From Candidatus Caldarchaeales archaeon (GTDB lineage Archaea > Thermoproteota > Nitrososphaeria_A > Caldarchaeales > Calditenuaceae): a stretch of DNA of 64,000 nt. The translations under genes and the position numbers were made by a program. The notes under the pieces were generated by a model, which was given only the letters and a program-made list of their open reading frames with translations, was not told the origin of the DNA and ran no database searches. The stretch spans positions 1 through 64,000 of the forward strand of contig JBCNVM010000003.1 of assembly GCA_039630085.1 (NCBI GenBank), given 5' to 3'. Below, piece by piece: positions 61,367 to 64,000 of this stretch (its first letter is position 1; each line of letters starts with the position of its first letter).

Positions 61367-62056
61367 ATGGAACTAGGAGACATCGTCAGGACCGCGGTGC
61401 CGGCCCTGTTGTCGGCTCTGTTGATCTTGGGTGCGGTCGTCCTTTTCCCCGGACTGATACCGGGGACATACAGGGTCACGACCGCGACCGCCCCGATCCC
61501 CGTCTTCATTACGCGGTTCGTGAACCTCACGACGACCCTCACAACCGCCTACCTCGTCGACTCCCGGGGACCTGTCTGGGAGCCCGTGTTCCTGGACCTC
61601 TCGGATAAGCCCGCGGAGGGGACGATAACCGTCCTCAACAGGACGCTGACCAAGGAGAGGCCGGCCTTCGCGATTGTCTTCATAGCCGCCGCGCCCCGCG
61701 GTTATGAGTTCGCAAGCACGGTCAACGGCTTCGTATACAGGCTCGAGGCTAGGGTTGCAAACAAACTAACGGCCGTCGTCGCGGAGGCAGCGCCGCCCGT
61801 CATCCCGGGGGTCAACCGCGAAAACTTCAGAGACCTGCTGATGGAGAGGGCGTTCTCGCCCGTAAACGTCCTGCCGTTCCAGAACCCGAGGAGGACCGAG
61901 ATCTCGCCGGGGCCCTTCGTCCTCCAGAAGGAGCGCGGAGCCTACTCGCCGTACCCGTGGCTCGCGATATGGCCGATTTCGGTCCACTTCCATGGCATCG
62001 AGAGGGACGTCCGGGTGACGGTCACGCTCTCCTATAGCTTGGTCGGGGCGAAGTGA
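61367..62056 (+). CDS. Membrane-anchored/secreted hypothetical protein with Thr-rich linker
   Basis: N-terminal hydrophobic helix, VTTAT..NLTTTLTT; stop overlaps E1 start (GTGA). Confidence 0.7.
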   Translation: MELGDIVRTAVPALLSALLILGAVVLFPGLIPGTYRVTTATAPIPVFITRFVNLTTTLTTAYLVDSRGPVWEPVFLDLSDKPAEGTITVLNRTLTKERPAFAIVFIAAAPRGYEFASTVNGFVYRLEARVANKLTAVVAEAAPPVIPGVNRENFRDLLMERAFSPVNVLPFQNPRRTEISPGPFVLQKERGAYSPYPWLAIWPISVHFHGIERDVRVTVTLSYSLVGAK

Positions 62057-62895
62057 CGCAGAAGCTCGCTCGGCGGACGCGGGTCTTCGAAGTCTTCAGG
62101 ATGGACGAGGACCGCTACGAACGACAGAGGAGGTTATGGGACCAGAGGAAGATATCGTCCCTGAGAGTCTTGGTGGGAGGTGCCGGGGCTCTCGGGAACG
62201 AGGTCGTAAAGAACCTAGTCCAGATCGGCGTGAAGAGAGTCTACGTGGTCGATTTCGACAGGGTCGTCCACTCGAACCTGAACAGGTGCCTGTTCTTCAG
62301 AAAGAGCGACGCGACTAAAAGGGCGAAGAAGGTCGACGCGCTGGCGAAAAGGGCCTCGGACCTCAACCCTGATGTGGAGGTCGTACCGATCTTCGGGGAC
62401 ATCCGCGACCTCCCGGGCGACGTGATCAAGGACGTCGACATGGCCCTCGGAGCCTTCGACAACATCTTCGCCAGACTCGTCCTCAACGCGATGTGCTACT
62501 CCAACGGTAAGCCCCTAATCGACGGCGGAATGGAAGGGACGCTCGGAACTGTTCAGGTGGTCCTCCCTCCCGAGAGCCCCTGCGTGGAGTGCGGGATGAG
62601 CGAGCTGGACCTCGAGCACATGTGGGAGAGGATCTCCTGTAGCGGCGACGTTGTCGTCGAGGAGGGCCCGAAGTTGCCCTACATCCCGATGACCGGCGCG
62701 CTCGTCGGCGCGCTTCAGGTCATGGAGACAGTCAAGATAGCCCTCGGCTTCGAGTCCTATAGGTCCTCCGGGAGGTGGAACGAGTCGGTCGGAGAGCCAC
62801 TCGTCGGCAAGTCCCTCCTGATCGACCTGAGGTCTAACCTCGGCTACACCTACGACCTCCACAAGAGGAGCGACTGCAACGTCTGCGCCCTCTGA
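62053..62895 (+). CDS. ThiF/E1-family ubiquitin-like activating enzyme
   Basis: RYERQ, GAGALGNEVVKNL, DFDRV..SNLNR, DN..AR, Zn pairs PCVEC and DCNVC, putative catalytic Cys in RISC. Confidence 0.92.
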   Translation: MTQKLARRTRVFEVFRMDEDRYERQRRLWDQRKISSLRVLVGGAGALGNEVVKNLVQIGVKRVYVVDFDRVVHSNLNRCLFFRKSDATKRAKKVDALAKRASDLNPDVEVVPIFGDIRDLPGDVIKDVDMALGAFDNIFARLVLNAMCYSNGKPLIDGGMEGTLGTVQVVLPPESPCVECGMSELDLEHMWERISCSGDVVVEEGPKLPYIPMTGALVGALQVMETVKIALGFESYRSSGRWNESVGEPLVGKSLLIDLRSNLGYTYDLHKRSDCNVCAL

Positions 62896-62984
62896 TAGAA
62901 CGGTCTCAGCGCATGAACCTCTCGCTCGTTTCTCCTCGCGCTCAGCGACAATTTTAATAAGCGCCGGGGATTTTGTATTCACGC

Positions 62985-63398
62985 ATGATGGAAAGGAGGT
63001 CGAGGGCGGGTCTTAGCGAGGCGGTGACCGCGATTCTGCTGGTGGTGATTGGGATCGCGATGGCACTCATGATCTGGCAGTTCTTCACACCACGGCCGAC
63101 GGAGGAGCTGAGGATCGGACCAATCGACGTCTCCGGAGGGGTTGTCGTCTTCACCGCGCAGAACATAGGGAGCGTGGACGCGGAGATAATTGGAGTCGCC
63201 TGCTACACCGCAGGGCAACCTCCGGCGGCCGGGGGTGCGGTGACGCCGCTGGGCGGTGCGGACACCAAGCTCCAGCAAGGCGAATCGAGTACCTTCTCGG
63301 GGAGCTGCGCAGGCGCGGAGCCGGGCAAGCCGATCAACGTGATGGTCTACACCAAGAACAAGGCCTACGGGCCCTTCACGGTCATCGTCAGGTCGTGA
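62985..63398 (+). CDS. Archaeal type IV pilin (class III signal peptide)
   Basis: RRSRAG|LSEAVTAILLVVIGIAMALMIW; beta-rich head with QNIGS and a Cys pair. Confidence 0.88.
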   Translation: MMERRSRAGLSEAVTAILLVVIGIAMALMIWQFFTPRPTEELRIGPIDVSGGVVVFTAQNIGSVDAEIIGVACYTAGQPPAAGGAVTPLGGADTKLQQGESSTFSGSCAGAEPGKPINVMVYTKNKAYGPFTVIVRS

Positions 63399-63426
63399 GT
63401 CTGAGTCCGCCTCCTCAACGCGACCG

Positions 63427-63447
63427 GCCTTTTTCCTTTTTCTGTTC
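63427..63447 (+). terminator. Oligo-T archaeal terminator after pilin gene
   Basis: GCCTTTTTCCTTTTTCTGTT ~30 nt after the stop codon. Confidence 0.6.
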
Positions 63448-63526
63448 CAAGCTCCAGCGGGACCGTGTTCTTCGATTGACATGAAACACATATATCATAC
63501 CGCCACCAAGTGAGCTCGAATCCGAC

Positions 63527-64000
63527 ATGATCATTACCGTGAACGAGTTGACTACTAAGAGGAGCGTCAGGCTGGAAGTAGAACCTGGCCACACGGTGAG
63601 GGCGGTCGTCGAGGAGGTGATGAAGGCGCTGAAGGTTCCGCCGCAGACGACCTATAGGCTGGTGTTGGGCGGGAAGGAGATCGGGCCGGAACTCTTCGAC
63701 AAGACGCTGGGCGAGCTCGGCATTTCGGACGGCGCGGTGATGGACCTCGTCCCGAGGCCCGTCGGCGGGTCGACCCTCCTGCCTAGGGACAAGTTCCTGA
63801 AGAGGCTGGAGAGGGAGGAGGAGGACCTGAGGAGCAGCGGTTTCCCTTTCACCAGACAGGACGTCTGGAGGCCTATGAGCTTCCCTATGGTGTACAGCGC
63901 TGGCTACGAGATGGTCAACGTGGCGGTGAGGTACACTGTCTCCTTCAGGGCTAGGGGGTTCGTCCTAACGAAGAGGGGAATCGAAGAGCAGTGGGACCAC
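63527..64000 (+). CDS. Ubiquitin-like domain (GG at residues 80-81) fused to putative E2/UBC-like domain; 3'-truncated by window edge, not in ORF track
   Basis: MIITVNELTTKRSVRLEVEPGHTVRAVVEEVMKALKVPPQTTYRLVLGGKEI...KTLGELGISDGAVMDLVPRPVGG then STLLPRDKFLKRLEREEEDL...RYTVSFRARGFV...EEQWDH; CATATATCAT promoter-like element ~30 nt upstream. Confidence 0.85.
   Translation, partial: MIITVNELTTKRSVRLEVEPGHTVRAVVEEVMKALKVPPQTTYRLVLGGKEIGPELFDKTLGELGISDGAVMDLVPRPVGGSTLLPRDKFLKRLEREEEDLRSSGFPFTRQDVWRPMSFPMVYSAGYEMVNVAVRYTVSFRARGFVLTKRGIEEQWDH

Follow-up and report, generated by a model that had tools for sequence, protein, structure and literature searches.

A type IV pilus and a second ubiquitin-type cascade on one accessory island of a Calditenuaceae archaeon

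To our knowledge, the natural targets and the cellular role of archaeal ubiquitin-like systems are unknown. The question is posed in a concrete form by a locus in the genome of a Calditenuaceae archaeon (Caldarchaeales; here G000), at the end of the first 64 kb of the 125 kb contig C23; this 64 kb stretch is called the window. Four + strand genes follow one another there, encoding a membrane protein, an E1-type activating enzyme, a type IV pilin, and a ubiquitin-like modifier (Ubl) fused to an E2 conjugating enzyme. What does a ubiquitin-type enzyme set do beside a pilin gene? An earlier note, made from the sequence, had described the four genes, the GTGA overlap of the first two, and the TTTTAATAA box and T-rich run of the pilin gene, all of which are present. 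It proposed a conjugation module distinct from the proteasomal ubiquitin (Ub) operon and linked to pilus or surface biology, perhaps with a Bil- or Bub-like antiviral role, and allowed that the pilin might be a chance insertion.

The four genes are the left end of an accessory island of ~26 kb (C23:61,340-87,605). The island holds two co-inherited gene sets. One encodes an adhesive-type type IV pilus, minor pilins included, and the other a second ubiquitin-type cascade that is complete. Five genomes matched in the search for the empty site, and four of them were compared: G002 and G005, of the same genus, and G007 and G008, of sister genera. In each, the homologue of the gene at 60711-61325 stands directly before that of C23:87630-88334 and the next gene. 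Because the site is empty in these relatives, the 26 kb segment is an insertion; the same empty sites set its right border. G003, G004 and G006 share both the site and the gene order of the island. In G001 the site is also empty, and the island lies on another contig between other genes, in a different order and without the ABC transporter. G002, which is 84% complete, has no fusion, short E1, pilin or orthologous pilus ATPase.

The content of guanine plus cytosine (GC) sets the island apart to some extent. At third codon positions (GC3) it is 0.67-0.89 in island genes and 0.87-0.93 in the flanking core genes. The four-gene block has a GC of 0.59-0.63 against 0.65-0.69 upstream; the description of the block as more A/T-rich holds, if modestly. 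No tRNA gene, direct repeat or attachment-like site was found at the borders, and no integrase among the ten island proteins, part of the island's gene set, that were scanned against the PHROGs virus families. The layout is given below, in contig positions; the window ends at 64000.

61326-61366, no strand: left border of the island, a spacer after a gene for a metallo-beta-lactamase-fold protein (60711-61325), placed by the empty sites in relatives.
61367-62056, + strand: TM229, an orphan protein of 229 amino acids with an N-terminal membrane helix, a Thr-rich stretch and a beta-sandwich (open reading frame, AlphaFold2 model).
62053-62895, + strand: short E1, a ThiF-type adenylating enzyme of 280 amino acids with a GTG start (ThiF, 4.9e-46).
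62952-62960, + strand: TTTTAATAA, a TATA-box-like element of the pilin gene, read in the sequence and a putative promoter.
62985-63398, + strand: type IV pilin of major-pilin size, 137 amino acids from the ATG (leader motif, fold model).
About 63430-63450, + strand: T-rich run 3' of the pilin stop codon, read in the sequence and a putative terminator.
63527-64000, + strand: Ubl-E2 fusion, cut by the window end; in full 272 amino acids, ending at 64345 on the contig (Pfam).
64359-64850, + strand, beyond the window: JAB protease (JAB, 7.3e-13).
64997-66968, - strand, beyond the window: p259, p157 and p246; p157 is pilin-like (DUF7288, 7.8e-6) and p259 has no family.
67065-67382, + strand, beyond the window: RING-like protein of 105 amino acids (Prok-RING_1, 5.2e-5, below the cut-off).
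67386-68246, + strand, beyond the window: p286, a coiled-coil protein.
68206-69276, - strand, beyond the window: p356, a coiled-coil protein.
69334-71657, - strand, beyond the window: ABC transporter pair, a 507-residue permease and a 267-residue ATPase.
71735-73531, + strand, beyond the window: pilus ATPase (T2SSE, 3.2e-22).
73535-75196, + strand, beyond the window: platform protein (T2SSF, 1.6e-7).
Up to 87605, beyond the window: pilin-like and large surface proteins, including p1474 at 77224-81648.

The island cascade is the second ubiquitin-type system of this genome, because a canonical Ub-E2-E1 operon stands separately on contig C65. The two are distinct, as the earlier note had supposed. 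The canonical operon (C65:7493-9611, which is 5493-7611 on the minus strand of locus L002) is compact; it encodes a Ub whose gene ends LVTRTVGG-stop, an E2 of 163 amino acids and an E1 of 403. A comparison of 11 locus proteins with the 17,788 six-frame open reading frames (ORFs) of the genome brought up a second E1 beside a second E2 on C65. Six Ubl queries found two Ubls, that of the fusion and that of the canonical operon. Two side observations concern C65. The canonical operon is followed by a 186-residue protein without cysteines at the place where a small RING protein might be expected, and a further JAB gene lies ~20 kb from the operon, at C65:27867-28511.

The island E1 carries a ThiF domain, the GxGxxG motif and conserved cysteines. 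Pfam was searched with 15 locus proteins at E <= 0.1 or 1 and with further proteins at E <= 0.001. The motif, the C177/C180 pair and C196 are present in all short E1s compared (58/58). At 280 residues, the enzyme lacks the C-terminal Ubl domain of canonical archaeal E1s. In an E1 tree its place is within a 'short E1' family (SH-aLRT 97), shared with sequences from Asgard, Thermoplasmatota, Micrarchaeota and Bathyarchaeia, separate from the canonical Caldarchaeales clade that holds the C65 copy. The tree comprises 75 sequences. Of 87 matches, any with under 200 aligned residues, or with identity above 93% to a row already kept, were removed, and the canonical E1 of this genome was put in manually. 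Some joins bring long branches together, which makes the deep order provisional.

The Ubl part of the fusion (residues 1-80) ends RPVGG and matches both Rad60-SLD (1.4e-5) and ubiquitin (1.6e-5) on residues 3-75. The full-length protein also matches UQ_con at 2.4e-7, with 30.9 bits against a cut-off of 27. The HPN triad (H189, P190, N191) and Cys205 are invariant in 8/8 family members, so that the E2 part appears, on motif and family grounds, to be a UBC-family enzyme with its catalytic cysteine. The Gly-Gly that ends a modifier is here internal, at the E2 junction; it is found in 7/7 of the fusions aligned and lines up with the GG at the end of stand-alone Ubls. Seven Ubl genes of Thermoplasmatota and Micrarchaeota (L062, L063, L064, L070, L071, L072, L081) end GG-stop. 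In five of them (L062-L064, L071, L081) the E2 is in phase with the Ubl and begins immediately or 3 codons further on; in Micrarchaeota L070 and L072 the gap is 4 and 13 codons. Since the relatives' Ubl ends GG-stop in frame with an E2, the fusion looks like the result of an apparent loss of one stop codon.

The next gene encodes a protein of the JAB/Rpn11 type, which also matches Prok-JAB (3.3e-9) and has the JAMM motif HSHPGYGCFMSPTD (H-S-H-x7-S-x2-D). It most likely frees the Ubl from the E2, given the conserved Gly-Gly at the junction and two precedents for such cleavage. Caldiarchaeum Rpn11 cleaves pro-Ub and a Ub-GFP fusion (PMC5654768), and the bacterial BubAB Ubl-E2 fusion is cleaved by its JAB domain after a conserved Gly (PMC11601596). 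The RING-like protein has eight candidate zinc ligands (CxxD, CxxC, HxxC, CxxC), and similar domains are found near E2 modules in nine other loci (L068, L084, L088, L090, L092, L106, L108, L133, L134). For p259, a search of a protein structure atlas gave generic helical-repeat look-alikes (TM-score < 0.5) and no family.

Class III signal peptides consist of a basic leader with Gly or Ala at -1, followed by a hydrophobic helix. The island pilin has this arrangement: its leader MMERRSRAG precedes LSEAVTAILLVVIGIAMALMIWQFF, and in 5/5 homologues neither the Gly at -1 nor the hydrophobic helix varies. The ORF encodes 141 amino acids counted from TTG 62973; ATG 62985 is the likely start. The TTTTAATAA box, ~25 nt 5' of this ATG, occurs once in the window, whereas 100 shuffles gave 0 matches. 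Pfam gives no match for the pilin. Its AlphaFold2 model (mean predicted local distance difference test score, pLDDT, 82.1) has a long N-terminal helix on a beta-sandwich, which is the pilin fold, and ranks 1-7 of a Foldseek search of the PDB are all archaeal type IV pilins, with E from 1e-4 to 1.7e-3 (for example 6nav at 1e-4, and 6w8u with a TM-score of 0.62). Besides the assembly ATPase and platform protein, a prepilin peptidase gene is found on the same contig (Peptidase_A24 above its cut-off at C23:113247-113573), and the machinery of an archaeal type IV pilus is thus present.

The pilin has the N-terminal helix and beta-sandwich of the adhesive archaeal type IV pili of S. islandicus LAL14/1, S. 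acidocaldarius (Aap) and Pyrobaculum, with a TM-score of up to 0.62. Also in common are the assembly genes, all on this one contig: those for the T2SSE ATPase, the T2SSF platform protein and the prepilin peptidase. However, the island pilin is only 14-23% identical to the solved archaeal pilins and lacks a Pfam pilin match. The island also has a ubiquitin-type cascade, with which no pilus locus was found reported in the literature. In the literature searched, no work appeared to link a ubiquitin-type system with archaeal pili, and two papers on Calditenuis mention ubiquitin as background only. Beam et al. (PMC4681859) report strong transcription of a pilus system in Ca. Calditenuis aerorheumensis, which may or may not correspond to the island pilus.

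How firmly are the two gene sets joined? Among 41 related genomes searched, the full-length fusion is found in five, all of one genus. A word-index search gave nine homologous proteins, all at least 62% identical, and a metagenome scan gave 13 more contigs with the fusion, at 72-79% identity and with a GC of 0.45-0.61; each large metagenome or protein collection was scanned once. The resulting 18 fusion loci (five genomes and 13 metagenome contigs; GC 0.45-0.64) show five gene orders of the same gene set. Ubl-E2, JAB and p259 are adjacent in all five, and TM229 and E1 in all three in which E1 is seen. In three orders the gene directly upstream of Ubl-E2 is the pilin; one order places it at the island's far end, and in one it is off the contig. 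Of the 18 loci, 14 have the pilus ATPase and platform protein. Three of the others (L128, L130, L132) come from contigs whose ends lie less than 1 kb beyond JAB or p259; in the fourth (L129), which has 8.7 kb of downstream sequence, the order is different. The ABC transporter is inside the island only in the order shared by G000, G003, G004 and G006; the other four orders are without it. As a side observation, a 93-residue transposase-like fragment is encoded at the edge of the island-like region in L129 (1824-2105, minus strand), 160 nt upstream of Ubl-E2.

The next relatives are L133 and L134, in which the E2 is 49% identical, the Ubl is separate and the GC is 0.35-0.38. In L133 a pilin-like gene stands directly upstream of Ubl-E2-JAB, and a RING-like gene comes after the module; its 14.5 kb gave no match to the pilus ATPase or platform protein. 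The N-terminus of this pilin matches the island pilin (BLASTP 5e-7), and a pilin profile run over 97 loci (1.24 Mb) matched only in the fusion-type loci and L133. Other neighbours in L133 were considered as homologues of p259 and p356 and rejected (hhalign probabilities 0.2 and 0.4). The pilin and TM229 are not there by chance: they stay in the fusion-bearing islands despite the reshuffling, and a pilin is also found by the module in L133. In a sample of 401 genomes of the phylum, this E2 family occurred in 4.

The E1s closest to that of the island form its sister clade (SH-aLRT 96) and belong to a cluster of eight genes, three of which encode membrane or surface proteins. One is a surface protein that has a signal peptide and is anchored C-terminally; the others are a membrane protein whose outer part is Thr-rich, and a small membrane coiled-coil protein. 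Ubl, E1, E2, JAB, and a coiled-coil protein with a terminal RING-like finger complete the set. One Bathyarchaeia locus, contig C91 of G005 and, up to their contig ends, 18 metagenome loci all preserve this order. The best argument for a membrane/surface theme older than the Calditenuis island is drawn from here: both branches of the clade carry membrane or surface proteins in the cluster.

Two side observations were made on the sister cluster. Its membrane protein (L038, which is G005:C91 4414-5202; L075, 11131-11856; L141-L152) has the motif RKP[RK]V...PPPxPPxY[EQ]L..W before the membrane helix. The RKP...PPxY form is found in most of the 22 sequences, and 4-5 have SIGEY instead; it resembles the PPxY bound by eukaryotic WW-domain ubiquitin ligases. 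G005:C91 itself has a GC of 0.44, against 0.61 in the core contig G005:C19 (L118), and is 70-100% like metagenome contigs with a GC of 0.38-0.48. Either the contig was binned wrongly or it was acquired recently by transfer.

TM229, the first gene of the locus, gave no match in Pfam, NCBIfam, PADLOC or PHROG. Its relatives are three close homologues in the word-index search, and one cluster in a profile search of 1.84 billion representatives. The protein had been called Thr-rich, which is true locally: residues 31-70, beside the membrane helix, contain 10 Thr. Overall, Thr content is 8.7%, above the genome median of ~4.4% and below the 95th percentile of 10.3%; the label fits only in part. Residues 68-229 form a beta-sandwich in the AlphaFold2 model (pLDDT of the block about 58-92). 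A fold search with this domain found no PDB match at E <= 1e-3; the weak matches were jelly-roll-like (TM-score <= 0.33). BLASTP detected no similarity between TM229 and the membrane proteins of the sister cluster. An invariant N-x-T sequon is kept by the homologues, which suggests that the domain is extracellular. A predicted complex of E1 with residues 62-229 of TM229 gave no support for contact, a result that counts neither way.

The preferred reading, offered tentatively as somewhat short of probable, is that the second cascade, co-inherited with the pilus, acts on the island's own pilus and surface apparatus. A functional tie is proposed because the linkage has outlived at least four rearrangements and one relocation, and because a pilin stands by the module in L133. 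In this scheme, JAB would cut the precursor after Gly80 (RPVGG, before S) and so release Ubl and E2. The E1 would adenylate the Gly-Gly end and use its Cys196 to hand the Ubl on to the E2, at Cys205. Transfer to targets would be steered by the RING-like protein together with its coiled-coil partners. The targets would be cytoplasmic or membrane-facing parts of the pilus and surface apparatus of the island, a choice suggested by gene linkage, and tagging would control pilus assembly, turnover or activity. A more specific form of the idea is on the unlikely side, though worth stating. The cascade would be dedicated to a surface filament, placing Ubl on its own pilus machinery or on prepilin at the membrane, and would thereby switch assembly, retraction-like turnover or adhesion; with the sister clade it would form a lineage of membrane-directed ubiquitylation.

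Several points weigh against the functional tie. It is deduced from gene linkage only; of the proposed link to pilus biology, it is the conserved linkage that stands. Among the 55 genome loci from outside the Calditenuis-like group, no homologue of the pilus ATPase, platform protein, TM229 or pilin was seen, and the pilus link is thus missing from the wider family in Asgard, Thermoplasmatota, Micrarchaeota and Bathyarchaeia. The 18 linked loci are a narrow group, with E2s at least 72% identical, and are thus not independent. Sister-genus pilus loci, whose ATPase is ~39% identical, are found in genomes without this Ub module. The match of the RING-like protein to Prok-RING_1 has 23.5 bits against a cut-off of 29.1, and the same model gives sub-threshold matches in 6 of 14 control genomes. 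If the TM229 domain is outside the cell, it would be beyond the reach of the E1. The pilin leader in G000 contains no lysine and the pilin is extracellular once assembled; the pilin itself is therefore not an obvious substrate. No expression data were found: a search of sequencing runs for the locus gave two DNA runs of one study and no RNA dataset.

The cascade is tied to a defined set of ~20 pilus and surface genes, and this provides a short, concrete and testable list of candidate targets. Archaeal ubiquitin-like enzymes have been reconstituted in vitro (PMC5654768). If the link is true, it would be the first tie of ubiquitin-type tagging to a prokaryotic surface filament, and membrane-directed ubiquitylation would have existed outside eukaryotes, as a prokaryotic counterpart of eukaryotic membrane-protein control. 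If the link is only physical, the island carries an ordinary second copy of a known system in a variable region. In either case the Ubl-E2 precursor, one lost stop codon away from its relatives, shows how such fusions may originate.

That known system is the operon of Caldiarchaeum subterraneum and Asgard archaea, which encodes the same five activities (Ub, E1-like, E2-like, a small RING finger protein, and Rpn11/JAB), the RING one being only putative in the island. Its E2 likewise has HPN and a catalytic Cys, and its ThiF E1 has the zinc CxxC pair and a Cys at the crossover-loop position. A JAB enzyme matures the Ub precursor there (PMC5654768, PMC6043591). The island differs in being a second copy, in its short 280-residue E1 of a separate clade, in the fusion of Ubl to E2, and in the spread of its genes among pilus and surface genes, whereas the known operon is compact. 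Type I Bub (6E.1; BubAB, BubCD, BubE) also has an N-terminal Ubl-E2 fusion with a conserved junction Gly, at which its own JAB cuts (PMC11601596). However, the island E2 has Cys beside HPN where catalysis in BubB uses a Ser, its JAB and E1 are encoded separately whereas they are fused in BubCD, the E1 keeps the conserved Cys, a RING-like protein is present, and the host is an archaeon. DUF6527 (BubE) gave no match among the 15 locus proteins (E <= 0.1 or 1), the cut-off for the further ones being E <= 0.001. Of the features that together mark Bub, the JAB-E1 fusion and the Ser E2 are lacking, and so, among these proteins, is DUF6527. The Bil systems, as generally described, share the Ubl, E2, JAB and E1 activities and are sporadic in accessory regions; the island differs in lacking a specific defence-model match, in its archaeal lineage, and in its putative RING E3.

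Four other explanations have to be weighed. The cascade and the pilus genes may be unrelated cargo of a variable region, in which case the cascade would tag cytoplasmic proteins generally, in proteostasis or stress, much as the canonical archaeal system would. Such a role fits the E1-E2-JAB core of Asgard, Thermoplasmatota and Micrarchaeota, which is found without pilus genes and often amid housekeeping genes. The linked loci are also close kin, and the island has no recognisable mobility genes to account for joint function. Yet both gene sets stayed together through at least four order shuffles and at least one move, the incomplete genome G002 is without either, and L133 keeps a pilin directly upstream of Ubl-E2-JAB where no ATPase or platform homologue was seen. 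Unrelated cargo is for these reasons considered somewhat unlikely. It is improbable that the module is a Bil-type antiviral system which tags viral proteins beside a pilus that serves as a virus receptor. Bil does tag phage structural proteins, and archaeal pili do serve as virus receptors; the same four activities (Ubl, E1, E2, JAB), the sporadic occurrence of the E2 family, and the variable island with its lower GC3 all resemble a defence system. However, PADLOC (2023 models, from which newer ones may be absent), run on ten island proteins, gave generic matches only, E1 to CBASS E1-E2 models (best 2.5e-16) and JAB at 2.8e-7, with none for Ubl-E2 and no other defence gene. The E2 family is absent from viral contigs: two of 113 candidate stretches were kept, and both are giant-virus E2s. 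The E2 is eukaryote-like, with HPN, Cys and a RING-like partner, as in non-defence archaeal systems. The suggested Bil- or Bub-like antiviral connection finds no specific support here.

A shade less probable still is that the Ubl stays fused as a regulatory domain of the E2, and that the cascade uses the canonical Ub of C65. Never-cleaved ubiquitin-like domains are common in eukaryotic enzymes. A permanent fusion would nevertheless leave unexplained why Gly-Gly stands exactly at the junction in every aligned fusion, in register with the terminal GG of free Ubls of sister lineages, why a JAB gene comes directly next, and why the E2 retains HPN and Cys; cleavage of such fusions is, moreover, described for other systems (PMC5654768, PMC11601596). 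That the island is a prophage or integrated mobile element whose genes serve the element is very improbable. It does occupy two different genome sites. Automated calls reported in PMC10547907 predict provirus regions in Caldarchaeales, including Ca. Calditenuis fumarioli, and the island-bearing locus L061 is labelled with this species. The provirus genes listed there are a VirB11-type ATPase, a ThiF-type adenylyltransferase, a P-type Cu ATPase and an RNA 2',3'-cyclic phosphodiesterase; LigT and Cu-ATPase genes flank the island in G001 (L055), a candidate overlap with that region. The secreted protein p1474 (1474 amino acids) matches tape-measure PHROGs, at best with 1.6e-15, but these matches are limited to one coiled-coil stretch (~residues 810-1240), which may itself be the source of automated 'phage tail' or prophage calls in related genomes. 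Against an element stand the borders, free of tRNA genes and attachment-like repeats, and the ten proteins scanned with PHROGs, among which there was no capsid, terminase, portal or integrase and one weak match, for p356 (9.8e-5).

A last observation concerns the window upstream of the island. At 53753-58131, three successive + strand ORFs of 430, 318 and 693 amino acids resemble, by eye only, pieces of a glutamate-synthase-type enzyme.

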